NCBI GenBank assembly: GCA_041669965.1
Contig: JBAYAD010000001.1
Coordinates: forward strand, 1 to 40,828
Direction of reading: 5' to 3'
Length of the DNA: 40,828 bases
Source of the DNA: Selenomonadaceae bacterium
Lineage (GTDB): Bacteria; Bacillota; Negativicutes; Selenomonadales; Selenomonadaceae
Shown in pieces: positions 1-40,828 of this stretch (positions are counted from its first letter, which is position 1; every line of letters starts with the position of its first letter). The notes below the pieces were generated by a model, which saw nothing but the letters and a program-made list of their open reading frames with translations, was not told the origin of the DNA and searched no databases. The position numbers and the translations under genes were made by a program.

Positions 1-268
1 CATTGACATCCTGGGAGCAATTGTACTTAGGTGCGGCAAATACGCTATCTGACCACATATACCCTTTGATCAACCCGATGCAATCAAAGACCTGCTTACC
101 CAACTGTGACTTGTATGCAGCCTGTCTATTTGCTGTGTAATGTGACGGCAGGCGTTCGGTATTATATTTCAAAATTGTTTCGGTCGCTATCTGACCAAAC
201 GTTCCGTTCCAGTATGGAGCGCCCAAATGTGCGCTCGCATAAGCGGCCAGTCCTGTATTCGTTTTCAT
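1..268 (-). CDS. Endolysin, N-terminal part of NlpC/P60 (C40) peptidase domain; ORF runs off the left window edge
   Basis: Own translation from ATG at 268 (SD GGGAGG upstream): MKTNTGLAAYASAHLGAPYWNGTFGQ...LGKQVFDCIGLIKGYMWSDSVFAAPKYNCSQDVN. It stays open to nt 1. DCxGLxKG is the NlpC/P60 catalytic-Cys motif. Missing from the ORF track because it is truncated. Confidence 0.75.
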   Translation of the reverse strand, partial: MKTNTGLAAYASAHLGAPYWNGTFGQIATETILKYNTERLPSHYTANRQAAYKSQLGKQVFDCIGLIKGYMWSDSVFAAPKYNCSQDVN

Positions 269-282
269 TTTTGTATTCCTCC

Positions 283-1815
283 CTATCTTTTCAGATATTC
301 TACGGTCAAGGTCGGTTTGGTTACATTATCGGTCGTGATGTTGGTAGAGCCGTTCCAGGTGTCAGCCGTGATCGGTGTGAGCTGTGCGGCGGTGGGCGTG
401 GCTAACTGATAAGTGTAATACACAGGATTATTCGTCAGCCATGTATGCAGTGCCGTATTGGCATCTGCGAGCAACTCACTGCCGGTCAAGCCCATAACAG
501 TATAATCAGGATACCAGTATGCATGAGCAACACCTGTAAACACGCCTATCGTATTTAATCCACCTATGCCCGAATTGTTTACAATTGCAGCGTTACAATA
601 GCCGAGAGAATTTGTACCTACTTTTTTATTCGGAGCTAAATCAAGAATTCTCTTTGTTGTTGCGTTCCAGTCGTTCCAATTTATAAGTGGCGGTATAATA
701 CGCAGTCCAATATTCCCTACCGCCATGCCCAAATCATCTATCGTATCCTTTACCCCATTCGGCAAACTGCCGCCAACAAAGCCTGCCGGAAGCGTGATGT
801 CGGTGGTGGTATAGCCTTGATAAGGGGTGTATGCGGTAGCGGTTGATCCTAGTTCAAGCTGTACGTTGTTGAAGATTGATATACCTTCCGTTCCTGAGCT
901 TGCATACAGCAGGACTAATAGTCTATCATTGCTGCCGGAATTAAATAATCCTGTACCAGATTTTAACGACGCGGCGGGTGTTGTTCCATTTATTGTGGCA
1001 AAAACCGCACCAAATCCAAACCCAGATAGTCTTGAATAGTTTAAACAATATACAGTATTCTTTAGCACTGTAACTAGGTATATAACATACCACTTGCCTG
1101 TTACCGTTATTGTTGTTCCGTCTACACTGTGCGTAGTGTCTACCCTGCTATCTGTAATATTGTCTTTGTCAAATATATTTTTCCCATGGCTCGCCACCCT
1201 AAAATACCGCTCATCACCAGAGGATAATATCGGCGATGGATAATCTGGAGATGGTGAATTTGGCACAAATGCGGCGTAGGCTGTACCTACTGTACCAAGT
1301 TCAAACTGCTGTATATCGATACCTGTTATTAGAGAAGAAAACCGTATATATGCTGCTCCAACTGGCGATGTAAATGTTCTGTTATCTGTGCCACTATTTT
1401 GAAGTGACGATATGAACGTTTTTGATGCATCGTAAAAGCAAATTCCTACTAAGGCCGAAAGTACGTTACTTTTAATAGTATAAGCAGTTGATGCTAAGAT
1501 TGTTATGTAAGCAGAGACATACCATGTTGCATCAACCCCAAGCGTACCATCTGACTTCTTTAAGTATCTACCCTGCGTTGCCCTTGTTTTGTCGAACAAA
1601 TTCTTCCCCTGCGTGGTCTGTGCTTGCGTGGATAAACCCTCGAATGCTACTTTGCATTTGTGATTGTAGGTTCCCGTCAGTGCTAAACTCGTGCCGCTTG
1701 CTTCTGCTTCCTGGTACCCCGATACCAGCTGCGAGCCTTGGTATATGCGCACGGGTGCATAATCACCTTTGAACACTTCTGCCGGCTTGTCACCTATATA
1801 TAAGCTCATGCGCAC
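283..1815 (-). CDS. Tail fibre / receptor-binding protein with two tandem jelly-roll-like modules
   Basis: 510-aa ORF at the distal end of the tail module. Contains two modules that each start GKN[LI]FDK and end (F/L)ELG(T/S)..TAY, a pattern typical of Firmicutes phage RBP tips. Confidence 0.6.
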   Translation of the reverse strand: MRMSLYIGDKPAEVFKGDYAPVRIYQGSQLVSGYQEAEASGTSLALTGTYNHKCKVAFEGLSTQAQTTQGKNLFDKTRATQGRYLKKSDGTLGVDATWYVSAYITILASTAYTIKSNVLSALVGICFYDASKTFISSLQNSGTDNRTFTSPVGAAYIRFSSLITGIDIQQFELGTVGTAYAAFVPNSPSPDYPSPILSSGDERYFRVASHGKNIFDKDNITDSRVDTTHSVDGTTITVTGKWYVIYLVTVLKNTVYCLNYSRLSGFGFGAVFATINGTTPAASLKSGTGLFNSGSNDRLLVLLYASSGTEGISIFNNVQLELGSTATAYTPYQGYTTTDITLPAGFVGGSLPNGVKDTIDDLGMAVGNIGLRIIPPLINWNDWNATTKRILDLAPNKKVGTNSLGYCNAAIVNNSGIGGLNTIGVFTGVAHAYWYPDYTVMGLTGSELLADANTALHTWLTNNPVYYTYQLATPTAAQLTPITADTWNGSTNITTDNVTKPTLTVEYLKR

Positions 1816-3409: not shown

Positions 3410-4381
3410 TCAATACGCAAATGTCGTAAAACTAAAATATAATAGATCTCCAGCAAGCATGTCCGAGATTTTAAGTTTATCTCCTTTTATTACATCTGCG
3501 CTGTACTGGTATGCCTTATATACATACATTGCTCTATTTTTATCTTCCATTATCCCATATACATAAAGCGCTTTTGTTGTGCTTATACCACTTAAATTGA
3601 TTGGAGTAAATAAAATTGTTTGGAGCCCTGAAAATGAATTTGGAAACCATATGCGTATGTTATCAGTGCTAGAATTTACTTGCGTCTTTTGTATATATCC
3701 ATTGATATTAAACATATCATCCTTGCGAATCATTGTATATGAACCATTCATGCCGGTAACCGACTGTTCATTTATGAGATCCGTACCAATAATTGGCGTC
3801 ATCGTAAATCTACTTATAAGTGGTTTCCCATCGTAGTCATAGCATCCTTGCAAATACACCATTGAAGGTGATTTCAGTGCTTCCATCGTTGGATCTAGAA
3901 TACAGTTTTTCAGAATGATAATCGTCCCAGGAGCTGATCCTGTCGGCAGCTGTATCCGGTTAATTTCAACATCTTCAAATATGCATTTGCAATTATTTCC
4001 GAATATGATCTTGTTGATTCCGTTTCTTTGATTTATTACAGCACCGTATCTCCCTTTTATATGAATATAGCTATTGTCAATAATATTATGATCGCTCGTC
4101 AAGTCATAGCATTTTGATACAACCTGAACAATTGCATTTACAATTGCATAGTCAAGCAGATTATGTCCAGCTCCACTTCCGCTATAAGCTGTCATGCTAT
4201 CGCACAATATATAAAGTGGATCATTTGAAACTGCGTAATCTTCTGTTACCACCAGTTTATCGTAGTCTGCTCTTGTTTTTATAATCTTGTCAATTTTTGT
4301 GAAGTTCTCGTTAAAAGGGACTTGGTTTAAGTCATCGGAATCTTCCGGCAGGTTTAAATTTATATTGGCTGTATGTGTCAT
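3410..4381 (-). CDS. Tail fibre / baseplate-distal protein, possibly beta-helical
   Basis: N-terminal INLNLPEDSDDLNQVPFNENFTKID motif is common at fibre N-termini. Repetitive N/I/G-rich middle region. Lies directly after the baseplate genes. Confidence 0.5.
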   Translation of the reverse strand: MTHTANINLNLPEDSDDLNQVPFNENFTKIDKIIKTRADYDKLVVTEDYAVSNDPLYILCDSMTAYSGSGAGHNLLDYAIVNAIVQVVSKCYDLTSDHNIIDNSYIHIKGRYGAVINQRNGINKIIFGNNCKCIFEDVEINRIQLPTGSAPGTIIILKNCILDPTMEALKSPSMVYLQGCYDYDGKPLISRFTMTPIIGTDLINEQSVTGMNGSYTMIRKDDMFNINGYIQKTQVNSSTDNIRIWFPNSFSGLQTILFTPINLSGISTTKALYVYGIMEDKNRAMYVYKAYQYSADVIKGDKLKISDMLAGDLLYFSFTTFAY

Positions 4382-4401
4382 ATTTTTTCCTCCTATTTAT
4401 A

Positions 4402-4980
4402 TCATCCTACTGAAAAGCTTTTGTTCCATTGCATCATTTCTGCTTTTACATCCCCCCATGTTTTTACTTGTTTGAAATATCCCCATTGTGGCCATGAGAA
4501 TATTCCATCACAGATAGATCTACAATTTTTTATTTGATTTATCCTATCAATAACTTCATTGTATTTATCTGTACCTTTTTGATATAGCAAATTTTCTGTG
4601 CTGAAAGAAAAGTGATATGGTTCTCCTCCATATTGGTACCACTCATGAAATACAATATCAGAATAATATGTATCAATCACTCTTCTGATAGCCCAGATAG
4701 TTCCCATCTTACTGTGAATATAGTCAGCTTGTGCTATGATCTGCCGTTTTGTTTCTACTGGTGCCGCATAATCATACCATTCAATATGCATAGACACTGC
4801 CAACTCATCAAGGACTGCTGCTGCAATCAGTTCATTACCCACTATTTTCGCAGTTTGTCTCAGTTCTATATCCAATGCATTATAAACGGCGTTAACGCAT
4901 TTAGCGATTGCTGCTGCCGAATCATCTTTCTGCAAAAATTTTGGTATCAGCTCAATCATATCTATGCTATTTGTTTTCAT
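4402..4980 (-). CDS. Baseplate/tail protein, P2 gpI / XkdU-like position
   Basis: Start moved to ATG 4980 (MKTNSIDMIE). It has SD GGAGGA and an ATGA overlap with the stop of the J-like gene. Follows baseplate J as gpI does in P2-like and PBSX-like tails. Confidence 0.5.
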   Translation of the reverse strand: MKTNSIDMIELIPKFLQKDDSAAAIAKCVNAVYNALDIELRQTAKIVGNELIAAAVLDELAVSMHIEWYDYAAPVETKRQIIAQADYIHSKMGTIWAIRRVIDTYYSDIVFHEWYQYGGEPYHFSFSTENLLYQKGTDKYNEVIDRINQIKNCRSICDGIFSWPQWGYFKQVKTWGDVKAEMMQWNKSFSVG

Positions 4981-6065
4981 AATGATCCTCCGTATGTCAC
5001 AGTGCTTTCTGTGCATACAGGTATTTCGTACTCATACAGTATTGTGTTTGTAGGGCTGCTTACTGTTACCCTGTACGCACCTGCATTGATTACGGCCGCT
5101 ATTAGAGCGTCTTGATTGATGGATTCACCAATCTTCGCCGTCTGCAGTTTGTAGCTTTCCACGGCTTCCGCAACTGCTTGCGCAATGATTGTTTGTTTGT
5201 CAGCATCCGCTTTTTTTATGTAATACGTAATGTTAATTGCATATTCTCTTGATGTAGCCGGTACGACAGTGAGTTGATCGGTTAATACTCTCAGTTGATT
5301 TGTCTCAAAATATTCCGCTACCGCATTTGCGATTTCAATAGATATCGGTGCTCCATTTTTATCTGCCAGCATTATATTTACTTTTCCTGCAGATGGGCTA
5401 TATACATGAGCTTGCCCTACAGCATTGCTTGCTTTTAGTGCAAAAAACTTATACGCCGCAGCAGGACCAGCACTGCTATATGCAGCAGATGCTGACATTA
5501 CCCGTTGACGGAATGCTGCATCGCTTTCAATATCTAATCCTCCATATGATGTTATCGTATTTTCTGCTGATGTAATACGCGGAATAAGATCCACCATGGT
5601 ATTAATACTTCCTGTAAGTATATTATTTGATTCCGCCCCTGCTACAGTTGCAAAAGCTATGCATTCTCCTTCAGTAGCACCGTCTGGTATTGTGATCTGT
5701 TCCGCAGTTTCGAAAAATATTACACCATCACCGGTCACTCTGGTTCCGGCTGGTATTATGGTATAGTCTGCATATGCCTGTGGCAGCGTAAATTTTATTA
5801 TTGTTTTTGCCGCTTCTGCTTGCAGTCTCTCTACACCACGGTTTTCACCAATTAGATCTAAAAATTCACCTTCTGCGTATTGCGCAAAGTTGTTAGACAT
5901 AACACCATTGAAATCATTAGCCAGCGTTGCTGTTATATATGCAAAAATATAAAGAAGTATTTTTCTTGAATCACCATTGTATAGTGTCTCTCCTGTTTCT
6001 GTTTTAAATTGTTCTGTTATCTGTTCAAGCAGAATACTTGGATCTCTTTCAATGAAATTACGCAT
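4977..6065 (-). CDS. Baseplate J-like protein
   Basis: 362 aa, typical size and position. Sequence has a Baseplate_J-like character and overlaps the neighbouring baseplate genes. Confidence 0.75.
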   Translation of the reverse strand: MRNFIERDPSILLEQITEQFKTETGETLYNGDSRKILLYIFAYITATLANDFNGVMSNNFAQYAEGEFLDLIGENRGVERLQAEAAKTIIKFTLPQAYADYTIIPAGTRVTGDGVIFFETAEQITIPDGATEGECIAFATVAGAESNNILTGSINTMVDLIPRITSAENTITSYGGLDIESDAAFRQRVMSASAAYSSAGPAAAYKFFALKASNAVGQAHVYSPSAGKVNIMLADKNGAPISIEIANAVAEYFETNQLRVLTDQLTVVPATSREYAINITYYIKKADADKQTIIAQAVAEAVESYKLQTAKIGESINQDALIAAVINAGAYRVTVSSPTNTILYEYEIPVCTESTVTYGGSL

Positions 6066-19975: not shown

Positions 19976-20759
19976 TCCCTAGCTGTATCAGTTGGTTATC
20001 AATTACCTCTATCATGCTTGCTTCTATCCTCCTGATTTCACTGCTATCAATCAGACCGGTTAATTGGCTTGCGCATTTTCTCGGTACCGTTCGTATTACC
20101 GTCTTTATACCTGCAAACAGTGATGCAAGTTCTCTTATAACATCATCCCTGCGAAGCAGTTCTCCGTTCTGAATAGAATTCTTCATAGCTTGAAATTGCA
20201 TCTGATATTCTTTCAGCATTATTTCTGCTTCCATTTTTCGTGCGTACAGATTCTTTGCCTTTGCCTTTTCCTCTGTAGCATATGCTCCACCGCCTATAAG
20301 GCCACGCCACTTTAATACCTCTTCTATATCCCACCAGCCGGTTGCAACCTTCGGACATCCTTCTTTATTCCACATTGTTAATGTTTTATTCGTAATCTCT
20401 AAAAAATCAGCCAATCTACTTGACGAATAAAGCACCTTCCCTTCAATAAAACGAACTGACTTATCCGCTATTTTCATAACCGCCTCGTTCCTATCTATCT
20501 TTAATTGTTTTGATAGTTTAGAAATTATGTTGGATTGCTCATTAATGATTTTTTGATACGGATTTGTTACCGTTTTATCATCTCGTTTTCCTACCAGAGG
20601 ATACTTTAAGCATTCTTTTTTTGCCCTTTCATATGTAGCGACCGCCTCGCAATATGTATGTAAAACTGTCTGATCATATTTTTTTTTGCTATCAGATGTA
20701 ACCCTATCCCATTCTGCTTTCGCTTCGGGGCTTAGATTCTCATAAATGCTATTATCCAT
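19929..20759 (-). CDS. terS: Terminase small subunit: P27-like N-terminal half fused to a Nu1-like winged-HTH half
   Basis: aa 1-95 resemble Terminase_4/P27 (W..V...L..YCEAVATYERA...NPY). aa about 110-276 resemble Nu1 (LADFLEITNKTLTMWNKEGCP...WDIEEVLKWR). Overlaps both neighbouring genes. Confidence 0.7.
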   Translation of the reverse strand: MDNSIYENLSPEAKAEWDRVTSDSKKKYDQTVLHTYCEAVATYERAKKECLKYPLVGKRDDKTVTNPYQKIINEQSNIISKLSKQLKIDRNEAVMKIADKSVRFIEGKVLYSSSRLADFLEITNKTLTMWNKEGCPKVATGWWDIEEVLKWRGLIGGGAYATEEKAKAKNLYARKMEAEIMLKEYQMQFQAMKNSIQNGELLRRDDVIRELASLFAGIKTVIRTVPRKCASQLTGLIDSSEIRRIEASMIEVIDNQLIQLGNGEFIAEKAKAKKIK

Positions 20760-21954
20760 TAAGCAGCACCGCCGTACATCCAGAATGTTTCTCCCATCTT
20801 TTCACTATTACATTACAATACTTTGGATCAAGTTCCATTGTGTAGCAGCAACGCTCCATTTGTTCACATGCAATCAGAGTAGATCCTGATCCTCCAAACA
20901 AATCCATTATTATATCTTTCCGCATAGAACTGTTTTTCATCGGATATGCGATAAGAGGAATTGGCTTCATTGTGGGATGCTCGTCAGATCTATTCGGTTT
21001 ATCGAAATACCATACTGTTTTTTGCTTCCTATTACCGTGCCACTTATGCCCTGATCTTAAATCCCATCCGTATAAAACAGGTTCGAATTCGCCCTCTATT
21101 GATTCACCGCACATCACCGGCTCATGCTGCCATTGGTAATCCTGCCTACCCATTACCATGCTATTTTTTACCCATATGCATGTCTGCGCTAATTTAAATC
21201 CTGCATCACAAAACGCACCACGGAAGTTATATCCTTCGGAATCTGAGTGAAATATGTATGCAGCTGCTCCATAATTACAGAATGCACGCATATTTACAAA
21301 AGCATCAAACAGAAACTTTCTAAATGCATCACTTTTCATGTTATCATTTAGTATCGTTCCGGCCTTGCCTTGGACATTCACATTATACGGAGGATCCGTA
21401 ATAATTAGATTGGCTTTGCTCCCAGCCATAAGCATTTCCACATCATCATAAGAAGTGCTGTCTCTGCACATCAAACGGTGATCCCCAAGCTGCCAGATCA
21501 TGCCTTGTTTTATATGCGAAATATCTGCTTCTTTATATGCATTTTCAACATCGAAGTTATCTTCAAATGGCTCTATGTTTTTATCAAATCCAGATAGTCC
21601 AAATTGGCTCATATCGATTCCTATATCCGCCAATTCTATCTGCAATAATTCAATATCCCATTCGGCCAAATCTGCGGTGGAATTATCAGCAATCCGAAAG
21701 GCTTTTATTTGCTCTTCGGTCAGATCATCTGCAATGATACATGGAATTTCTATCATGCCCAGCTTTCGTGCTGCCTTGATTCTTGTATGTCCTGCAATCA
21801 CACCATTTTCACGGTCGATAATTACCGGCACCTTGAATCCAAATTCACGAATACTATTTGCAACCGCTTCTACGGCGATGTCATTCTTGCGCGGATTGCC
21901 TTTGTACTCGTTCAGGCTTCCCACGGGCATATTAACGATTTGCATTGAATTCAT
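20752..21954 (-). CDS. ParB-like nuclease domain fused to a DNA N6-adenine/N4-cytosine methyltransferase
   Basis: N-terminus has YKGNPRKND...GHTRIKAA, which is ParB/Srx-like. Motif IV is IITDPPYNVN and motif I is DLFGGSGSTLIACE, the beta-class order. Translationally overlaps terS. Confidence 0.85.
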   Translation of the reverse strand: MNSMQIVNMPVGSLNEYKGNPRKNDIAVEAVANSIREFGFKVPVIIDRENGVIAGHTRIKAARKLGMIEIPCIIADDLTEEQIKAFRIADNSTADLAEWDIELLQIELADIGIDMSQFGLSGFDKNIEPFEDNFDVENAYKEADISHIKQGMIWQLGDHRLMCRDSTSYDDVEMLMAGSKANLIITDPPYNVNVQGKAGTILNDNMKSDAFRKFLFDAFVNMRAFCNYGAAAYIFHSDSEGYNFRGAFCDAGFKLAQTCIWVKNSMVMGRQDYQWQHEPVMCGESIEGEFEPVLYGWDLRSGHKWHGNRKQKTVWYFDKPNRSDEHPTMKPIPLIAYPMKNSSMRKDIIMDLFGGSGSTLIACEQMERCCYTMELDPKYCNVIVKRWEKHSGCTAVLLNG

Positions 21955-25332: not shown

Positions 25333-25794
25333 TTATCCTTCCAGCATCGGAAGCAGTGACGGCATTGTTCCTGTGAGATATGCATCCTTTATCTGCGGCC
25401 CCATGAAATCGCTTACGGTTTGATTGTTCGGCAGGAGTATGTTTGCCATGAATTCATCGTCAAATACCGATATTCCGCATTCTACCGCCTCCAGCTTTGC
25501 CTTGATTACCAGATGCAGCGCTCTCCATCTCTGCCGGCATGCTTGCTCCCAGGCTTCTCTTTGGCTGTTTGCCGTACGTTCTTGTCTTCCGCTCGGTGTG
25601 TATTTATAATCGCTTATAGGTGGCAAAGGGAGAAGGAACTTAATCTGTCGATCGTACATTTTAAAGGCGATCATTGCTTTTCCCTCTGATGATGCATACA
25701 TGAAACTGCTTGCCCCGTATTTTATAAGTGTCCGCTCGATCTCCAGCCTTGAAAGTTCACTTGATACCGTTGTGTTCTCTGCATATTTAGGCAT
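25333..25794 (-). CDS. Conserved phage hypothetical protein
   Basis: 153-aa ORF in operon context. No motif recognised with certainty. Confidence 0.5.
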   Translation of the reverse strand: MPKYAENTTVSSELSRLEIERTLIKYGASSFMYASSEGKAMIAFKMYDRQIKFLLPLPPISDYKYTPSGRQERTANSQREAWEQACRQRWRALHLVIKAKLEAVECGISVFDDEFMANILLPNNQTVSDFMGPQIKDAYLTGTMPSLLPMLEG

Positions 25795-27649
25795 ATATGT
25801 GACCTCCCTTATTTTCTTTTTGATTATCCACCCATATAATCTGATCTGATGTTCCCCAGTGCCATCCGTCTACCAAACACGGGATGATGGTTTCAAGTAA
25901 TACTGTTCCCATGGCTAGAGCTGCTGGAGGCGGTACTGCGTTCCCGATATGCTCTCTCCACCTGGCATCACTTTTACCGGATAGGCACAACGGAGATCCG
26001 TCTGCATAGGTACTTGGAAATCCTTGCAGCATAGCCAGCTCAAATGTGGTCAACGGTCTATGCCATGTGCCGTCCTCTGCAATAATGATCCAGATACCGT
26101 TTTCATTCTCTTCCGGTGTTCTTGGATCAGCCACCAATGTGCTGCCAGCCCCGTGTATATTTCCTTTTCCGGTTACGGTACCGTTCGGCTTGTCCCACTC
26201 CTGGATGAATGTTACCTGTGAACGGTTCCATGTACCTTTTTGATCTTCTGAAATACGTGGATCTGCAATAGCAGCTGCGCCTTGTGTATGTATATCTCCG
26301 TTTGCCGTAATTGTATTACTTGGCTTGTTATAATCCATCACAAGGCATTTACCCGCATTATATGTATTACGCTTATCTGCGACTAAAAGAGCTCCGCTGC
26401 CTATCCTTGCGCCTATTACAGTGTTTGCAGGCTGGTCATATTCGTTCACTTGATAATTGTTTCCGAACTTTCCCGCTTTTCCGTATCTTACATCACAGAT
26501 GATACCTGCTCCTTGGAATACCCCTGTGCCGCCTGTAACGGTATTGGCGGTCTTATCAAATGGCTGTACTTGGATACGGTTTGCGTGAAAGCGTTTGTCT
26601 GCCAGCACGATACCTCCATTATGGGCATTAATATCCTTGGCTCCTGTGACCGTTCTGGATGGATCCTCATAATCAGATACGGAAAGCTGCCCTGCTCTAC
26701 TGTCTGCTACAGCTTGGCACCCTTGCCCTTTCATATTGAATCCTGATCTTCCTGTAACGGTGATTGCTGTGCTGTCAAACTCTTGTACCTTGCATGTTTG
26801 GCTCATAGCTTTTTCGCCCAATGCCCGAATATCTTTGCCTGCAGGTATCATGGCCAGTTTCACCCATGTCTTATAAGCGAGGTTTGGCATCCTGTGCATA
26901 GGACCGCATGCTTCTGTATCCCCTGGCATTGGTATGGGACCTATAATATCCCCAATGGTCTTATGCTTGTACTTCTTTGGCTGGTAGATGAATGCAGGTA
27001 TCTTTTGAGGATTGCGGGCTATAAGCAGGAAACGCTTTCTATACTGCCCCAGCTGCCCGATCTCTCCGCAATCGTGATCCGCCTCATTGATTTCGTATCC
27101 GTATGCTTTGAGTATACTTTCTATCTCATCCACCAGCTTTCTACCCCGTGTTTTAATACGGGGTACATTCTCAAACAGAATGAATGCTGGTAGATCATCC
27201 ATAAACGCTTCACACAGTAGCTTTATTGATCTGATAGTAAGTCTGTTCAATGCCTGATACTTTGGTGTCTTTGCACTCTTTTCAGGAAGCAATCCGGAGA
27301 AGCCTTTACATGGTGCTGACATGAATGCTCCATATGGAGCTATGCCCTTGCACGCTGCCCTTATATCTTCCGGTGTGATTTCATGCCAATCTGCTGTTGG
27401 TTCGTGTCCCCAGAAGTCTATGTACTGCTTACGGTCAAACAGATCCATCTGTGCCGCCGGTACGCCCGTAAGCTTCTCAAAGTCCTTGCAGCAATACGGA
27501 TCACAATCTATACCCAGCAGAGTGGTGAAGCGACCTTTCACGCCCTTATACTCTGTGGTGCTGTTCTGCATTCCGTATGCCCCACCTCCGCTTCCGCAGA
27601 AGAAATGTATTACCGGTAGTTCGTATTCTTTATTCATGATATCCTCCAT
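25787..27649 (-). CDS. DNA (cytosine-5)-methyltransferase with six tandem TRD-like repeats
   Basis: Motif I FFCGSGGG, IV SAPCKGFS, VI FENVPR, VIII QYRKRFLLIA, IX LTTFELAMLQGFP, X GNAVPPP. The likely true start is the ATG at 27637, behind GGAGGA. Confidence 0.9.
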   Translation of the reverse strand: MEDIMNKEYELPVIHFFCGSGGGAYGMQNSTTEYKGVKGRFTTLLGIDCDPYCCKDFEKLTGVPAAQMDLFDRKQYIDFWGHEPTADWHEITPEDIRAACKGIAPYGAFMSAPCKGFSGLLPEKSAKTPKYQALNRLTIRSIKLLCEAFMDDLPAFILFENVPRIKTRGRKLVDEIESILKAYGYEINEADHDCGEIGQLGQYRKRFLLIARNPQKIPAFIYQPKKYKHKTIGDIIGPIPMPGDTEACGPMHRMPNLAYKTWVKLAMIPAGKDIRALGEKAMSQTCKVQEFDSTAITVTGRSGFNMKGQGCQAVADSRAGQLSVSDYEDPSRTVTGAKDINAHNGGIVLADKRFHANRIQVQPFDKTANTVTGGTGVFQGAGIICDVRYGKAGKFGNNYQVNEYDQPANTVIGARIGSGALLVADKRNTYNAGKCLVMDYNKPSNTITANGDIHTQGAAAIADPRISEDQKGTWNRSQVTFIQEWDKPNGTVTGKGNIHGAGSTLVADPRTPEENENGIWIIIAEDGTWHRPLTTFELAMLQGFPSTYADGSPLCLSGKSDARWREHIGNAVPPPAALAMGTVLLETIIPCLVDGWHWGTSDQIIWVDNQKENKGGHIYA

Positions 27650-33479: not shown

Positions 33480-33680
33480 TCAATCCCACCTCCACGTTTC
33501 AATCAGTCCGATGTCTTGCATTTCTTGCAGCTCAGTAATAACTTCTTCGAACGTGGAATCTTCATGCGGAGTAAGATTTTCTTTGCTGTTTAATCGGTCT
33601 GCTTTGGCTTTCAAGAGCGTTTCAAACCTTTTAATTTGATCGCGCATTTTTTTTGCCTGATCGTATCCGCTACTCATCAC
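33480..33680 (-). CDS. Small coiled-coil hypothetical protein
   Basis: 66-aa ORF with an ATGA-type overlap to the upstream gene. Confidence 0.45.
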   Translation of the reverse strand: MMSSGYDQAKKMRDQIKRFETLLKAKADRLNSKENLTPHEDSTFEEVITELQEMQDIGLIETWRWD

Positions 33681-34777
33681 TGTGCCTCCTTCGCTGTTTC
33701 AATCTGCATTTCCATCTGTTTCTTCTGTGCCGCCCTAAGCGCCTTGTAATCGTTGTACTGCTGCCGGTATCTATAGCTGTCGCCGAACACGTTCCACGCC
33801 GCCTTTACTAAATTCGGCTCGTACGGTCGTATCTTTTCCAAATCATCTACTGCTCTCGCCGATATGGAGCATCCACAACAGCCTGTGCGTGTTAGACCAT
33901 ATACCTCATAGGCGTCCGAATATCGAATTCCGTAGTAGTTTTTGTACCATTGCTTGTCCGCGTCAGACACATAAAATAGGGGTCTAAGTCGGTACTTGCC
34001 ATCAGCTGCTTCGGAAAAGCACATTGACGTATTGTCTTGGCGCGGAACAGACCTCATGCCGCCCTCGTCCCGGCGCTCTCCAGTAATTATCATGTCAAAT
34101 GACTTTTGCACGCTGTGCGCCAAATGCTTTTTGCAATCAGTGCAACATTTGTTGCTGACCCTGAATGGGATCGGGTTTTCGGTGATAAAATCAAGCATAT
34201 ATTTTGATGATCCGATGACGAGCTGAATGTCCGGCCGTGGATCCCCGGCGGAATTGCACCCGCACAGAAAATTAATTGGCGATTCGCATTTTGGGTAGCG
34301 TTCACGAAGCTCTGCCCGTTTTGCCGTTTTATCCTCTGCGTTTGCGTATTCTGCTGCAATGGATAGCGGGATGTTTTTTGTTTGCACGCCCTCTAACCCA
34401 GCCGACATGATTTTTGATACAAACGGTATTCCGTGTTCTCGTGTTGATTGCACGATACCTTTTTTCGGGCGGTGCTCGGTGATTGTGACGCTATACAATT
34501 CCGCTATTTCGCGGACATGGCGTTTTATTGCGTCCATCTCGAGCCCGGTGTTAAAAAAGCAGTATTGGATGGGCGGAAGATTGAAGATTTTTCGCACCAT
34601 TTCGATCAGATGTAACATAATGTCGCTGTCACTTCCGCCAGAGTACGAGCAGATTGCATTCGGATGCTCAATCAACCGTCTCGCGATTATGCTTTTAATG
34701 GCTTCGAACTTATGCGGAGCATCGAAATCTGCATACTCTGGACGGTCTGTATATACTTTGCTTTTATATCCGCTCAT
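33677..34777 (-). CDS. PAPS reductase-like PP-loop ATP pyrophosphatase family protein
   Basis: PP-loop CSYSGGSDSDIMLH. C-terminal Cys cluster LTRTGCCGCS, as in phage PAPS-reductase-like proteins. Confidence 0.8.
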   Translation of the reverse strand: MSGYKSKVYTDRPEYADFDAPHKFEAIKSIIARRLIEHPNAICSYSGGSDSDIMLHLIEMVRKIFNLPPIQYCFFNTGLEMDAIKRHVREIAELYSVTITEHRPKKGIVQSTREHGIPFVSKIMSAGLEGVQTKNIPLSIAAEYANAEDKTAKRAELRERYPKCESPINFLCGCNSAGDPRPDIQLVIGSSKYMLDFITENPIPFRVSNKCCTDCKKHLAHSVQKSFDMIITGERRDEGGMRSVPRQDNTSMCFSEAADGKYRLRPLFYVSDADKQWYKNYYGIRYSDAYEVYGLTRTGCCGCSISARAVDDLEKIRPYEPNLVKAAWNVFGDSYRYRQQYNDYKALRAAQKKQMEMQIETAKEAQ

Positions 34778-36948: not shown

Positions 36949-37010
36949 TATAAAATTCTTGTGGAGCAGCATTCATATAAAGCTTTATTGTGTAGCATGG
37001 AGGTATGAAT

Positions 37011-38165
37011 ATGGCAACCTATCGGAAGCGCGGATCAACATGGTATTGTCAGTATGTTGAATCATATGACAGCAATAATAAAAAAATAATCCGTCAAAAA
37101 GGCGGATTTCGCATCAAACAGGATGCTATTAATTATGCAAAAAATGCAGAGGTATCGCTCCGTTCCGGTTCATATGTCAACCCTGTAGACAAAACCACTG
37201 TATCTGAATGGATTGACGATTATATCAAACTGTTCTGCACCACTCAGCGCCCAAATACTATTGCAAGCTATACCAATACTGCTAAGCATATCAAAGAAAA
37301 GATCGGTAATAAGAAAATATCCGATGTAACCGTCAAGGATGTGCAACAGCTTTACAATTCAGTTGAAGCCGAAATATCACCCTATACCGCAATTCAAGTG
37401 GCCAGAGTGCTCTGTATGGCTTTCAAAAAGGCTACCGAAAGCAAAATGATACATGACAACCCTACTATATACGCAAAAAAACCCAAAAAACCCGAATGCG
37501 AACAGCGCGTATACTCGACCGATCAGATCGGAATGTTGATGAACAGCATACATGATCCAGCCAGTCCATACCGCTGCCTATTTGCACCTATATTATTATG
37601 TGTTACGCTCGGTCTCCGTAGGGGCGAAGCTCTCGGATTAAAATGGAGCGATTATAAAGACGGTAAAATTTGGATATCTGATGCGCTTATCAATAATAAT
37701 CGAGATAAACGAATTGATCTGGCAGATGTAAAAACGCATAGATCGAACAGGCCTATTGCAGTCGGCCCGTTTATCGCTTCTATATTGACAGAGCAACAGC
37801 AGTGGCAAGCCTCTAACCGTCAGAAGATCGGTGACGAATATATCCTGAGCAATTCTATCTGTACTTTGCCTGGCGGAATGCCAATGAAACCCAACTACCT
37901 TACCCATCGTTTTGACATGGCCTGCGAAAAAGCCAAACTGGATCACATCAGACTGCATGATCTGCGGCACACGATGGCAAGTGTTGCAAACGCTGAGGGA
38001 ATCGATATTAAAAAGGTTTCATCAAGGCTGGGACACTCCAGCATATCCATTACGGCAGACACCTATACGCATATGTTTGCCGAAGTGGATCAGACGGTAT
38101 CCAATACGATCGAAAATGCCATTGAAAACTCCATTGTAAAGGCGAAAAAAAAGAAAGTAAAGTAG
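37011..38165 (+). CDS. int: Tyrosine integrase
   Basis: C-terminal HDLRHTMASV...LGHSSISITADTYTH (R-H-R-Y catalytic set). N-terminal MATYRKRGSTWY arm-binding-type domain. ATG 37011 has better spacing from GGAGG than ATG 37005. Confidence 0.9.
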   Translation: MATYRKRGSTWYCQYVESYDSNNKKIIRQKGGFRIKQDAINYAKNAEVSLRSGSYVNPVDKTTVSEWIDDYIKLFCTTQRPNTIASYTNTAKHIKEKIGNKKISDVTVKDVQQLYNSVEAEISPYTAIQVARVLCMAFKKATESKMIHDNPTIYAKKPKKPECEQRVYSTDQIGMLMNSIHDPASPYRCLFAPILLCVTLGLRRGEALGLKWSDYKDGKIWISDALINNNRDKRIDLADVKTHRSNRPIAVGPFIASILTEQQQWQASNRQKIGDEYILSNSICTLPGGMPMKPNYLTHRFDMACEKAKLDHIRLHDLRHTMASVANAEGIDIKKVSSRLGHSSISITADTYTHMFAEVDQTVSNTIENAIENSIVKAKKKKVK

Positions 38166-38192: not shown

Positions 38193-38217
38193 AGGGCATA
38201 GAAATATGCCCTTTTTG
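38193..38217 (+). terminator. Rho-independent terminator after int
   Basis: AGGGCATA-GAAA-TATGCCCT followed by TTTTG. Confidence 0.65.
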
Positions 38218-38277
38218 TATGCCAAATTCATATTCTAAAAGTGATATTTCTATTTTAGTATGCCAAAAGTATGCCAA
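38217..38277 (+). repeat. Arm-type repeats, int-proximal arm (3 copies of GTATGCCAA)
   Basis: Copies start at 38217, 38258 and 38269. ATTCTAAAA is at 38232. Confidence 0.6.
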
Positions 38278-38301
38278 ATTGTAATTTACAAATTTTTGAG
38301 T

Positions 38302-38328
38302 AAAGAAAAAGTGCCTATTATAGGCACT
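38302..38328 (-). terminator. Rho-independent terminator immediately 3' of the tRNA fragment
   Basis: Minus strand: AGTGCCTA-TAA-TAGGCACT followed by TTTTTC. Confidence 0.6.
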
Positions 38329-38332
38329 TTGC

Positions 38333-38383
38333 TGGTGACCCATCCGCGATTCGAACGCGGGACACCCTGATTAAAAGTCAGGC
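38333..38383 (-). other. attP core: 3' fragment of tRNA-Lys(UUU), from anticodon stem to CCA
   Basis: Minus strand: GCCTGA-CTTTTAA-TCAGG GTGTC CCGCG-TTCGAAT-CGCGG ATGGGTC A CCA. There is no D-arm or 5' acceptor strand upstream. Confidence 0.8.
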
Positions 38384-38472
38384 AGAATACGTTTTCTCAT
38401 TCCTTTTGGTGTAGTAATATGGGCATTTTGAGCCTTTTTCAGTTTCTCATATTATCTCATGTTCACATGCGC

Positions 38473-38505
38473 GTATGCCAAAAGTATGCCAACTGTATTC
38501 TAAAA
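38473..38505 (+). repeat. Arm-type repeats, distal arm (2 copies of GTATGCCAA plus ATTCTAAAA)
   Basis: Copies start at 38473 and 38484. ATTCTAAAA is at 38497. Same orientation as the int-proximal copies. Confidence 0.6.
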
Positions 38506-38554: not shown

Positions 38555-38582
38555 ATTATACCGATATGGTGCGTTCTGTCAA
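38555..38582 (-). promoter_or_regulatory. Consensus sigma-70 promoter reading toward the att core
   Basis: Minus strand: TTGACA, 16-nt spacer, TATAAT. No ORF longer than 9 codons lies between it and the terminator at 38302..38328. Confidence 0.55.
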
Positions 38583-38803
38583 TGGTTTTTATCTTACAAT
38601 TTCAATATTACCGAAGTAGGGCTGATGTACTACCGTTTCCGATTCGCGTACCTTCTATACGTTGCTCTTTGTCGGCACTGCTCCGTACAGGCTGTGCCCA
38701 AAATGTAGGCACGATATAATCCGAGGCATCGTACCAAAATGTATACGATTCCTCAAGGCGTATGCTGCAGTAATGGCTTTCGGTGGTTGCGGGTGGGAGA
38801 GCA

Positions 38804-38832
38804 TAAAAAAAGAGCAGCTCCGGATAGCTGCT
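38804..38832 (-). terminator. Rho-independent terminator of the accessory operon
   Basis: Minus strand: AGCAGCT-ATCCGG-AGCTGCT followed by CTTTTTTTAT. Located 13 nt after the stop at 38845. Confidence 0.65.
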
Positions 38833-38844
38833 GATAACCATTAT

Positions 38845-39267
38845 CTATTGTTTACGTTTTGAGCGTCTGCACTGATCGCAGTATACCCGTCTGGTACCGT
38901 GTGCGTCAAACTCAGTGCCACAGATCTTGCATACTGCGATCTTTTTACGCCGCTCGTATCGCACAGGATTAATACTCTCCCTGTTTTTGTAATAATACTG
39001 CAGTCCTCCGATCCGATCTGCCTCTGCAATCATCTTTGGCGCACAGTCTGCGCAATATTTTTGTAATCCTGCTTTTACGGCATATGGTTTACCACACGCA
39101 ATGCATATATCGATTGATCCTAATCTGCGTATATCTCCCTGTTTACACCTGGCTTTAAAACTTCTGCATTGCTGCCTAATTCTGTCCGCCCTGCAGGATG
39201 GGCAATAATATGCGCGTGGTCCTCCGTCAAAAGCAGCCCCGCATTGCTTGCATATGTGCCGCATCAT
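38845..39267 (-). CDS. Basic triple zinc-ribbon protein, unknown function
   Basis: Three CxxC...CxxC units (CKQCG..CPSC; CIACG..CADC; CKICG..CDQC). ATGA overlap with the upstream gene. Confidence 0.55.
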   Translation of the reverse strand: MMRHICKQCGAAFDGGPRAYYCPSCRADRIRQQCRSFKARCKQGDIRRLGSIDICIACGKPYAVKAGLQKYCADCAPKMIAEADRIGGLQYYYKNRESINPVRYERRKKIAVCKICGTEFDAHGTRRVYCDQCRRSKRKQ

Positions 39268-39605
39268 AACGATCTAATAAAATCCCGCAGCAGTTCTGAT
39301 GTGGTCTTATCTTGACTTTCTGTTGCAGTTTCTAGTTTTTGTTTTTCGGTCGGTGTGATGCGTATATGGATTACCTCTGTAAGACTCTCGTTATTTTTCT
39401 CCAGTCCATAAAACCGATAAAAATATTCCGGCAGAGGACTGCCTTTAAGCCTGCGCGGATGGTAGCCTTTGTACTGTGTTAGGTCTGTGACAGAAATCTC
39501 GCGATATGGTGTCAGATTAACTTTAGACAGTGATCCGTCCTCCAGTTCTACAACTATTTGAGTTGGCAATTGATCTACATACCATGCGCCATTAATTTTT
39601 AACAT
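39264..39605 (-). CDS. Protein with a C-terminal ribbon-helix-helix (CopG/MobC-like) domain
   Basis: C-terminal VIHIRITPTEKQKLETATESQDKTTSELLRDFIRSL fits the RHH strand-helix-helix pattern. The N-terminal roughly 75 aa are not recognised. Confidence 0.55.
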   Translation of the reverse strand: MLKINGAWYVDQLPTQIVVELEDGSLSKVNLTPYREISVTDLTQYKGYHPRRLKGSPLPEYFYRFYGLEKNNESLTEVIHIRITPTEKQKLETATESQDKTTSELLRDFIRSL

Positions 39606-39632
39606 ATTATTTCCTCCTTATTTTTAATAGTT

Positions 39633-39650
39633 GGGGCGATTGCTCGCCCC
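39633..39650. other. GC-rich intercistronic hairpin
   Basis: GGGGCGA-TTGC-TCGCCCC. The T-run is on the plus-strand side only. Confidence 0.5.
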
Positions 39651-39660
39651 TTTTAAATCA

Positions 39661-40002
39661 TTACATATTCGCTTTTATAAAATCGTTGATAGTATCCGTG
39701 CGATGGTCTATCCAGTATTTTGCATCATTAATGGCAAAAATCTTGTTAAATATTGTCTGTACTTTTTCAACCGGCGTTGCTGCAGTAGTTGACTTGTATG
39801 CGTAATCGCTAAACTCTTTTACAAATCCAGTATATATGGTGTTTGCCCATGCGACTTGCTTTTCCGATCCGCCCTCAGTGATTGCATCTAATACCGTAAA
39901 ATCCCAATCTGCACACTCGCAAAAATCTCTCGTGCAATACTTCTGTGTGCTTTCGTTTCTCCATGCCGCCTGCAATGTTCTGATCTTTTCAAAGTTTGTC
40001 AT
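39661..40002 (-). CDS. Hypothetical protein, first gene of the accessory operon
   Basis: 113-aa ORF with SD AAGGAG. No motif recognised. Slightly acidic, with no TM segment. Confidence 0.55.
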   Translation of the reverse strand: MTNFEKIRTLQAAWRNESTQKYCTRDFCECADWDFTVLDAITEGGSEKQVAWANTIYTGFVKEFSDYAYKSTTAATPVEKVQTIFNKIFAINDAKYWIDHRTDTINDFIKANM

Positions 40003-40063
40003 TTTGTTTCTCCTTGCCTTGACGCCGGCTCGCGATTATGTTGGTCATCTCTTAACCACATGT

Positions 40064-40089
40064 ATATTGTATCACGCGTGATACAATAT
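40064..40089. promoter_or_regulatory. 26-bp perfect palindrome (candidate operator)
   Basis: ATATTGTATCACG|CGTGATACAATAT. It covers the -10 and the whole spacer of the promoter. Confidence 0.65.
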
Positions 40090-40094
40090 GTCAA
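40066..40094 (-). promoter_or_regulatory. Near-consensus sigma-70 promoter of the accessory operon
   Basis: Minus strand: TTGACA (40094..40089), 17-nt spacer, TACAAT (40071..40066). Confidence 0.6.
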
Positions 40095-40140: not shown

Positions 40141-40170
40141 AAATAAATAAAAGCCCCGCCGAAGCGGGGC
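40141..40170 (-). terminator. Rho-independent terminator after the endolysin
   Basis: Minus strand: GCCCCGC-TTCG-GCGGGGC followed by TTTTATTTATTTTT. Confidence 0.7.
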
Positions 40171-40216: not shown

Positions 40217-40828
40217 TTATAATTTCCCGATCTTCGCAGCCAGCACCTTGCACTGCGCCAGCTTATCCTTATATCCGTCCCTTTCAACAATCAGTGCCGC
40301 CACCTGAGCAGCCAGCGCCGCCTTTTCTGCCACGATCGCATCGTATGCAGATTTACTCACAGTCTCTGCTGTAGCGGTTTGTGCAGGGGCGGATGCGGCC
40401 GGAGCGGATACCTCCTTCGCATACGTAGCAGATATACTGCACCATCCGGTCTTGCCGCCGTAGGTAGTCTTTCCCCAACTGCCGGATACCTCTGTTACCT
40501 CGATTATAGTATCCTTCGGGATGTCGCCAATATCGGCGGATGATGCGTTTGAGCTTGCCCTCAAATTCATGGTTTCTTTTATTAATTTATAATACTTCAC
40601 TGTGTTTTCCTCCTTCTTTTCTTCGGCATATTCAATCCAAGGGCACTTCCCCCAGCTTGTCCATGGGCGTGACCTTAATGAGGTTTTCACCACGCCATAA
40701 GCAAAGCCTCTAGCCTCAACCACATAACCGTCACCAATATATACGCCAACATGCCCCTTTGAAAATACCAACACACCCGGCATATCCGGCATGGTGCTGA
40801 TAGAGCCATGTTCAGTGCATTTTAATAA
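40217..40828 (-). CDS. Endolysin, C-terminal part: end of the NlpC/P60 domain (His motif), SH3-like domain and coiled-coil tail; ORF open at the right window edge
   Basis: The frame is open to nt 40828 (LLKCTEHGSIST precedes the listed Met). Has SKGHVGVYIGDGYVVEA (catalytic His region), an SH3-like YYKLIKETMNLRASS...GWCSISATY, then an Ala-rich heptad tail. Confidence 0.75.
   Translation of the reverse strand, partial: LLKCTEHGSISTMPDMPGVLVFSKGHVGVYIGDGYVVEARGFAYGVVKTSLRSRPWTSWGKCPWIEYAEEKKEENTVKYYKLIKETMNLRASSNASSADIGDIPKDTIIEVTEVSGSWGKTTYGGKTGWCSISATYAKEVSAPAASAPAQTATAETVSKSAYDAIVAEKAALAAQVAALIVERDGYKDKLAQCKVLAAKIGKL

Follow-up and report, generated by a model that had tools for sequence, protein, structure and literature searches.

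A three-gene operon of probable anti-defence function beside the attachment site of a temperate Bacillota phage

What does a small operon, insulated by terminators and lodged between the lysin gene and the attachment site (attP), bring to a temperate phage? The question is raised by a stretch of 40,828 nucleotides assigned to a Selenomonadaceae bacterium (GenBank assembly GCA_041669965.1, contig JBAYAD010000001.1, positions 1 to 40,828), which we call the window in its full length. The window is a contig of a temperate, sheath-tailed phage with 41.5% GC, and no DNA relative of it was found among the GenBank phages searched. The operon comprises three genes, named here A, B and C in the order of transcription: a small acidic protein that we call the cargo, a candidate repressor and a basic zinc-ribbon protein.

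Our answer is that it is an anti-defence operon of the acr-aca type, that is, a gene for an anti-CRISPR (Acr) or similar protein followed by the gene of its Aca-like regulator, in a temperate phage of Bacillota; we put the probability of this reading at about 0.7. It is supported by a cargo gene related to known Acr proteins, by the Aca-like anchor gene B, by an operator that co-varies with B and by a position that recurs in other phages. An earlier note, made from the sequence of the window, had proposed such an operon from its architecture alone, and the evidence on cargo, anchor, operator and position presented below speaks for that proposal.

A fixed frame around exchangeable cargo

The features of the operon, all of them read on the − strand of the window, are as follows, from the upstream to the downstream end:

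40153..40170, − strand: terminator of the lysin gene, with 7 GC pairs and a T run
40066..40094, − strand: promoter of the sigma-70/SigA type, TTGACA (40094..40089), a 17-nt spacer and TACAAT (40071..40066)
40064..40089: operator, a 26-bp perfect palindrome made of ATATTGTATCACG and CGTGATACAATAT
40003..40060, − strand: 5' leader, with hairpin 1 at about 40060..40039, which has a purine-rich loop
40034..40015, − strand: leader core CGCGAGCCGGCGTCAAGGCA, with a stem of 40029..40027 and 40018..40016
40015..40010, − strand: Shine-Dalgarno site AAGGAG
39661..40002, − strand: gene A, 113 aa, isoelectric point (pI) 5.1
39633..39650, − strand: GC hairpin after the stop codon of the cargo, 7 bp, -15.2 kcal/mol, no U tract
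39264..39605, − strand: gene B, 113 aa, an N-terminal beta-rich domain (1-75) and a putative C-terminal NikA/CopG-like ribbon-helix-helix (RHH) domain (about 76-113)
38845..39267, − strand: gene C, 140 aa, pI 9.7, overlapping gene B by 4 nt (ATGA)
38813..38832, − strand: intrinsic terminator at the end of the operon, a hairpin with a T run

This anatomy agrees with what the earlier note had described, namely a near-consensus promoter, a perfect palindrome over its spacer and -10, three open reading frames (ORFs) of which the last two are coupled, a GC hairpin lacking a U tract after the first, and a terminator on each side. The promoter scores 11/12 and has an extended -10 TG, and the terminator at its upstream side insulates the operon from late transcription. 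The palindrome spans the entire spacer and the -10; its 18-bp core, TGTATCAC-GC-GTGATACA, occurs once in the window, against 0.01 occurrences expected by chance. A second copy of the operator is absent from the window and from the related loci, each of which carries one.

The operon of the window is one member of a family of cassettes. Indeed, about 29 metagenomic loci of Bacillota phages or prophages (given below by their L numbers) share the frame upstream of gene B: a -35 of the TTGAC type, a spacer and extended -10 occupied by a GTAYCAC-N0-4-GTGRTAC palindrome, TACAAT, a hairpin whose loop is rich in purines, and the leader core. The layout of the promoter as seen in the window recurs in about 20 of the related cassettes. 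What lies between the leader and gene B changes from one cassette to another, as the earlier note had suggested checking: we found 29 distinct proteins there, belonging to about 25 unrelated families, 58-236 aa in length and mostly with a pI of 4.1-5.5, and the number of cargo genes per cassette runs from none (L150/L151) to four (L007). The stop codon of the cargo is directly followed by a GC hairpin in almost every related cassette, and a short U tract often comes with it, so this hairpin is a conserved part of the design; the one of the window is a candidate attenuator or mRNA-stability element.

Two of these cassettes connect the slot with proteins of interest here. The cargo of L146/L147 is a homologue of AcrIC5 (Pfam PF22147, 4.7e-24; Protein Data Bank (PDB) entry 7yhr, 7.4e-11), an anti-CRISPR for which orthologues have been documented in Firmicutes and Actinobacteria (PMC7913775), and in L007 the last of the four cargo genes is a member of the gene A family. 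Searches with PADLOC and NCBIfam returned nothing useful for the three operon proteins.

The position of the cassette is recurrent as well. In the window, the slot between lysin and attP is framed by a lysin gene on one side and by a partial tRNA, arm-type repeats and an integrase gene on the other; in L001, L002, L005 and L009 too, the cassette stands after lysis genes or beside an integrase or host flank. It does so in phage backbones that are otherwise unrelated.

Gene A and its kinship with AcrIF23 and AcrIE7

No Pfam family matches gene A, a word-index search found gene A itself only, and among GenBank phages it gives just a marginal match to a hypothetical protein of a Mannheimia phage. 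HMMER, run in full over 1.8 billion representatives, brought out 27 remote homologues; among the matches listed, none exceeds 45% identity to gene A. Common to them is a domain of some 65 aa, marked by the signature L.GSEKQ.AWA..IR ... A.(F/W)WID.R, which often comes in tandem copies or behind a zinc ribbon. In gene A, this is the C-terminal domain (about residues 41-113), which carries GSEKQ..WA..I ... AKYWIDHR and is modelled by AlphaFold2 (AF2) at a predicted local distance difference test score (pLDDT) of about 90. G45, Q49, W52, A53, W97 and I98 of gene A do not vary within the family, and K48 is almost always kept (at least 90%); S46 and E47 are invariant just among the ten closest relatives. 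Gene A also matches phrog_16984 and phrog_16123, both of unknown function.

Two profiles were built, one from the whole family (A2) and one from the ten closest relatives, which have a single domain (A6). Compared with 177,635 PDB sequences, A2 matched solely AcrIF23 (7fia, residues 65-128, E=6e-7) and AcrIE7 (residues 2-49, E=5e-5). The same two proteins came out with A6 (AcrIF23, E=8e-5; AcrIE7, E=7.6e-5), nothing else falling below 0.5. The remote-homology search that the earlier note had called for thus leads to two anti-CRISPRs and to no other protein of known structure. Both block cleavage by Cas3 or Cas2/3 in type I CRISPR-Cas systems: AcrIE7 (PDB 9n3x, 9l2q; PMC12002350) and AcrIF23 (PDB 7fia; PMC9270243). 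In AcrIE7, K6 and R49 form a patch required for binding single-stranded DNA (ssDNA) and for inhibiting Cas3 cleavage (PMC12002350). They align with K48 (the K of GSEKQ) and R101 (the R of WIDNR) of gene A.

By profile, gene A shares with AcrIE7 and AcrIF23 a helical domain with the signatures GSEKQ..WA..I and A.(F/W)WIDNR, and it is like them a small protein whose gene directly follows a promoter and precedes that of a regulator. As for the differences, the match is one of profiles (HMMER E=6e-7 to 1e-4) and that of the folds is weak; the N-terminal 40 residues of gene A, which contain three Cys, are of another kind; the Cas2/3-binding loop region of AcrIF23 is missing; and the host belongs to another phylum. 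We take the odds to be about even that gene A would be an inhibitor of a type I CRISPR system specifically.

The two closest relatives of gene A stand in units of similar build but of different regulation. In the locus of the closest homologue (P0040; L170, 1..1488), we found a lysin gene, a terminator, a promoter, the homologue itself, a hairpin and the gene of another RHH protein, of 128 aa, which weakly matches RHH_3; an imperfect palindrome lies over the -10 of the promoter. The locus of the other relative (P0041; L171, 1..914) has a consensus promoter with repeated ACATGGTTAACA (GTTAAC-type) sites. In L171, a near-identical leader of 40 nt is repeated ahead of each of the next two small genes.

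Regulator B, its operator and the leader RNA

Gene B is the constant element of the cassettes. It has 28 homologues at 52-62% identity, and 46 distinct sequences were collected over viral, genome and metagenome collections; where the titles of the records name an organism, the hosts are mostly Bacillota, such as Peptococcaceae and metagenome-assembled genomes of "Bacillus sp.". None of the 50,697 GenBank phage records contains a homologue.

For the claim of the earlier note that B ends in an RHH domain, the support from Pfam is weak, the score of B itself staying below the cut-off (see the next section). The NikA-like family PF21983 is precomputed for four homologues of B, and a Foldseek search of BFVD aligned the C-terminal part of B with viral CopG, NikA and other RHH models (probability 0.85-0.97, target TM-score about 0.6-0.7, at E>0.4 and over about 40 columns). 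The AF2 monomer (pLDDT 86) has helices at 85-96 and 102-112, and DSSP calls no strand at about 76-84. For the N-terminal domain, BFVD gave solely an uncharacterised phage protein of 79 aa. The model of B has no Foldseek match with E<1 in the PDB, and the B profile found nothing significant among the PDB sequences.

The strand of the RHH domain varies together with the operator. When it reads EVIH.R.T, the right half-site is GTGATAC in 7 of 9 loci and GTGGTAC in none; when it reads EVIR.R.S, the half-site is GTGGTAC in 10 of 12 (Fisher p=2.5e-4 for the association of His or Arg with the operator, computed on sequences that are related to one another). The His and Arg types are interspersed on a rough neighbour-joining tree of the N-terminal domain, which suggests several independent switches. 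Pairing of Arg with G agrees with direct readout in protein-DNA recognition. This co-variation is the best available evidence that B would bind the palindrome. Since the palindrome covers the extended -10, such binding should repress the promoter, and since each locus has one copy of the operator, B looks like a dedicated autorepressor.

The N-terminal domain of B is more conserved than the RHH domain, and all 16 invariant positions lie within it. It is found alone (69-94 aa) in L018-L021 and L163 and with a different C-terminus in L161; B is extended by a zinc ribbon in L015/L016 (B ORF about 4001..4579) and by an acidic C-terminal domain of about 110 aa in L150/L151 (B ORF 1448..2119 in L150), where there is no separate cargo gene. 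The N-terminal domain, thus occurring alone or with other C-termini, seems to have a function of its own. The fused B of L150/L151 recalls the reported Acr-Aca fusion proteins AcrIE10 and AcrIF24.

The second conserved element is the leader. Across the cassettes, a near-invariant core, CGCGGCCCGGCG-AYAA-GGGC, stands directly 5' of the Shine-Dalgarno site. In an alignment of 24 distinct cassettes (A3), the four bases past CGCR pair with the four past AYAA, with the variants GCCC/GGGC, GCTC/GAGC, CCCC/GGGG, CTCC/GGAG, ACC/GGT and GCC/GGC. Compensatory changes affect three of the four stem pairs (12 cells), a score reached by none of 500 shuffles; the stem is paired at 95% in the proposed structure versus 25-40% in slid controls, and RNAalifold predicts the same stem. 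The purines that bracket its 5' strand are G,G in 19 cassettes, A,A in 5 and mixed in none. CGC and GCG on its flanks might pair as a second helix, which would give a compact H-type pseudoknot; as both triplets are invariant, covariation speaks neither for nor against this pairing. A covariance model of the leader matches the window at 40005..40040 with 35.6 bits, the copy of the window being part of its training alignment, and no family of Rfam 15 overlaps 40003..40065 even at E<=10. The thermodynamic test of the window leader, whose stem has 3 bp, is not significant when taken alone (z=-0.66), so the support for the stem comes from covariation. Hairpin 1 varies in length and could not be aligned by MAFFT/RNAalifold; its covariation was judged by eye. 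A scan of IMG/VR with CGCRNNNNRGCGNNAANNNNRGAAGGAG, N standing at the paired positions, gave mostly unrelated coding sequence and one true cassette, and hence no independent covariation data. In L002, whose main leader lies at 5356..5390, a second and weaker leader-like match (5960..5995, 24.4 bits, E=0.004) stands directly upstream of gene B.

The leader core has a wider distribution than the cassettes. In the form CGCGGCYCGGCG-NN-AAGRGC (window 40010..40034), it is also present in unrelated IMG/VR contigs, some of them of high GC content, at head-gene loci (L030/32/34/38, L033/39/57, L040, L042, L043, L051, L052, L054/66, L055, L056/60 and L061). At most of these, the core immediately precedes the Shine-Dalgarno site and ATG of a gene that occupies the scaffold position, with portal and major capsid on its two sides, and it also occurs upstream of a portal gene; in L051, a phrog_172 scaffold gene follows it at a distance of about 190 nt. 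Y and R covary in these untranslated regions (UTRs) too, as GCCC/GGGC versus GCTC/GAGC. We considered B as the universal partner of the core and rejected the idea, as a hidden Markov model of the N-terminal domain gave no match in the stretches examined of the head-gene loci that carry the core. The core may be a widespread 5'-UTR element of phages, and we favour for it a role directed at the host, such as enhancing translation or stabilising the mRNA beside the ribosome-binding site.

Several known systems help to place these elements. The first RHH-type Aca reported is Aca14, in a 2026 preprint (Feussner et al., bioRxiv 10.64898/2026.07.27.740549). As in our cassettes, its operons have a small RHH regulator 3' of variable anti-defence genes and an inverted repeat over the -10; the comparison was one of architecture. 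Autorepression is experimental for Aca14 and deduced for B; Aca14 comes from Proteobacteria (Pasteurella) and B from Bacillota phages; B has an additional, very conserved N-terminal beta domain of 75 aa. No conserved RNA motif was found for Aca14, in contrast to the covarying leader motif of the B cassettes, and Aca14 controls neighbouring operons whereas each B locus carries a single operator copy.

In acr-aca operons governed by Aca1 or Aca2, a conserved structured RNA in the 5' UTR also stands beside the ribosome-binding site of the first gene. Aca1 and Aca2, which are helix-turn-helix (HTH) proteins, are reported to bind their cognate RNA motifs, and Aca2 to bind both DNA and RNA (bioRxiv 10.64898/2026.07.27.740549). 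By analogy, the leader of the B cassettes could be a site of translational repression. It differs from those motifs in that its core does not resemble the operator, and B is an RHH rather than an HTH protein; given that the core also stands upstream of head genes in phages without B, its partner is no less likely to be a host component, for example the ribosome, than to be B. A more far-reaching view, which we put forward tentatively and would not bet on, is that B represents an undescribed Aca-like family in which the RHH domain reads the operator and the separate N-terminal domain binds the 5'-UTR element or senses a host or defence factor, CGCRNNNCRGCG-AYAA-NNNN being a widespread phage control element or enhancer of translation common to anti-defence and head genes.

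Put together, the operon might work as follows. Once phage DNA has entered the cell, the near-consensus promoter, which is of the host type, would fire without any phage factor; the leader hairpin and the stem or pseudoknot next to the Shine-Dalgarno site probably aid the stability or the translation of the first gene, and gene A would be made first and in the largest amount. Our best guess is that gene A would then shield the DNA of the phage against the nuclease of a type I CRISPR system or a similar nuclease directed at ssDNA. The GC hairpin past gene A would lower or buffer read-through, B and C then being translated as a coupled pair. B would dimerise through its RHH domain, bind the palindrome over the -10 and shut the promoter, a negative autoregulation under which low-level expression would persist in lysogens. 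Gene C would be an interchangeable DNA or RNA binder in the third slot.

Rival readings and the wider setting

One has to set against the acr-aca-type reading a number of points that weaken it. A single-sequence search of the PDB with gene A finds nothing, the Acr match being one of profiles. Foldseek ranks 7fia second for gene A with the highest probability (0.54), but at E=2.1 and a TM-score of 0.39; the authors of the AcrIE7 crystal structure report that it deviates from AlphaFold models (PMC12002350). AcrIF23 binds Cas2/3 through residues 17-28 (PMC9270243), which lie outside the shared domain, so this domain may be a generic ssDNA-binding or scaffold module. Most cargo families are without known function. 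On the side of the regulator, B matches the NikA-like PF21983 with E=1e-3 and 19.6 bits, under the gathering cut-off of 27, and the association of His or Arg with the operator was drawn from related sequences and a rough tree. Finally, the leader core is found in phages that do not have B and is, therefore, not a B-specific site.

Some of these points also speak for the most likely of the alternatives, which we regard as unlikely and yet as a serious contender: the operon would be a generic autoregulated moron, in which B is still an autorepressor and gene A an ssDNA-binding accessory protein serving replication, recombination, lysogenic conversion or the evasion of a non-CRISPR nuclease. Gene A and AcrIE7 share the portion that binds ssDNA, and this portion does not include the loop by which AcrIF23 binds Cas2/3; the domain is widespread, in tandem or fused to zinc ribbons in many proteins; and the cargo families are for the most part uncharacterised. 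On the other hand, the sole solved relatives of gene A are two anti-CRISPRs, AcrIC5 occupies the same slot of a sister cassette, and a small acidic cargo behind a strong, self-repressed promoter is the hallmark of anti-defence loci.

The third slot, 3' of gene B, suggests another explanation. As described in the earlier note, gene C is basic and has three zinc ribbons (C6/C9-C22/C25, C55/C58-C72/C75 and C113/C116-C130/C133). Pfam gives weak zinc-ribbon matches, and the middle part of phrog_1271 ("HNH endonuclease", profile positions 114-244 of 361) is matched at 5e-7; neither an HNH motif nor a Pfam HNH family is present in gene C, and a comparison with PDB sequences gave nothing significant. 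Gene C is probably a nucleic-acid-binding partner, translationally coupled to B. In the related cassettes, the slot is variable and is either empty or filled by basic nucleic-acid-binding proteins (zinc-ribbon, AP2, HNH or HTH):

Triple zinc ribbons of the gene C type: window, L014/L037, L022, L024 and L148
Zinc-ribbon repeats with AP2: L001 (E=6e-5) and L011 (E=2.5e-6)
HNH: L015 (2e-13)
HTH_11: L002/L010 (6e-10) and L013/L139 (7e-8)
Other small zinc ribbons: further cassettes

AP2-domain proteins are reported to be frequent in acr loci (bioRxiv 10.1101/2023.05.22.541795), among them those from C. curtum and from phages of C. difficile. L001 and L011 resemble these AP2-linked loci of Clostridia and Actinobacteria in having AP2 proteins downstream, whereas the window carries neither an AP2 protein nor AcrIC5; moreover, those studies anchor on the AP2 protein, while the anchor here is the RHH protein B. 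Homologues of gene C also occur away from B (L165 3625..4450, L166 231..1017 and L164 4001..4480); in L165 and L166, the homologue stands directly behind an unrelated acidic protein annotated at 111-124 aa, the start of which is uncertain (about 107 aa from the first ATG). The zinc-ribbon protein may be a recurrent partner of small acidic proteins.

Could the cassette then be a remnant or passenger of a homing endonuclease or of a mobile DNA-binding gene, with C as a degenerate protein of the HNH/AP2 type and A and B as incidental companions? The phrog_1271 match, the true HNH protein of L015, the AP2 proteins of L001 and L011 and the occurrence in unrelated backbones all lean that way, but gene C has zinc ribbons without the HNH catalytic motif, and the conserved parts of the cassette are the promoter, the operator, the leader and B, not the third gene. 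This explanation, which we hold to be improbable, may account for the movement of the cassette, not for its conserved regulation or its Acr-related cargo. Least probable of all is a type II toxin-antitoxin or abortive-infection module with B as an RHH antitoxin and A or C as the toxin, an option that the earlier note had left standing along with a defence function: antitoxins are often RHH proteins, translational coupling links B with C and L005 has a PemK toxin gene close to its cassette, but B has no conserved toxin partner, both of its neighbours varying in family (upstream, about 25 families), no toxin domain was found in a library scan and no PADLOC match was obtained, the RHH domain is C-terminal, and B stands behind the variable gene, not ahead of it.

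The acr-aca-type operon sits in the following surroundings:

40217..40828, − strand: lysin gene, ORF open at the window end, NlpC/P60 (weak match) and SH3_3 domains
38212..38503: attP region
37005..38165, + strand: tyrosine integrase gene, by a library match

The lysin ORF lacks the N-terminal half of the NlpC/P60 domain, and joining the window ends (40217..40828 followed by 1..300) fails to restore it, so the contig is not a clean circular permutation. At attP, 38344..38399 is a partial tRNA by the Rfam tRNA model, of which it covers positions 8-63 out of 71, and a complete tRNA was not found there by ARAGORN; judging from the aligned anticodon loop, the 3' fragment at about 38335..38399 is tRNA-Lys(UUU)-like. 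Five arm-type repeats, GTATGCCAA, surround it (38217, 38258, 38269, 38473 and 38484).

Some further observations concern this region. A terminator (38330..38308) lies immediately past the 3' end of the tRNA and would serve the reconstituted tRNA once the phage is integrated. A promoter of 12/12 consensus (TTGACA, 16 nt, TATAAT; 38555..38582, − strand) points from the operon end to attP, and no ORF follows it. Its transcript in the free phage would be an RNA of about 250 nt ending at that terminator; in a lysogen, the promoter would read out via the duplicated 3' part of the tRNA into host DNA and may allow host genes that lie beyond the interrupted tRNA-Lys locus to be expressed again. A 77-aa ORF (38608..38841, − strand), 3 nt past gene C and annotated as a gene in one JGI record, is probably spurious, because it shares sequence with the operon terminator, is not preceded by a Shine-Dalgarno site and belongs to no family. 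Elsewhere, on the − strand, the window encodes a fusion of a ParB-like protein and a DNA methyltransferase (20752..21954), a second DNA methyltransferase (25787..27649) and a PAPS-reductase-like protein (33677..34777), possibly further anti-restriction functions; in L022 and L024, a protein that looks PAPS-reductase-like by sequence motif is encoded directly upstream of the B cassette.

As a type of system, the acr-aca operon is already known. What is new here is a family of regulators, combining an N-terminal beta domain with an RHH domain, that has no relative among the GenBank phage records searched, together with a code of operator recognition by His or Arg, as read from aligned sequences, and a conserved leader motif and post-cargo hairpin. 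To our knowledge, few anti-CRISPR or other anti-defence genes have been described for phages of Clostridia-type Bacillota, and finding more of them relies on anchor genes that are conserved. Gene B provides one, along with its promoter, operator and leader: it marks about 25 unrelated families of small, mostly acidic candidate anti-defence proteins, including an AcrIC5-like one. With gene A, the AcrIE7/AcrIF23 domain reaches into Bacillota phages, and the comparison points to the conserved Lys/Arg patch as the core of this domain. The co-variation of His or Arg with A or G makes a simple prediction of how the RHH domain reads the operator, and the leader motif, being common to head genes of unrelated phages, may be a general device for strong or regulated translation.

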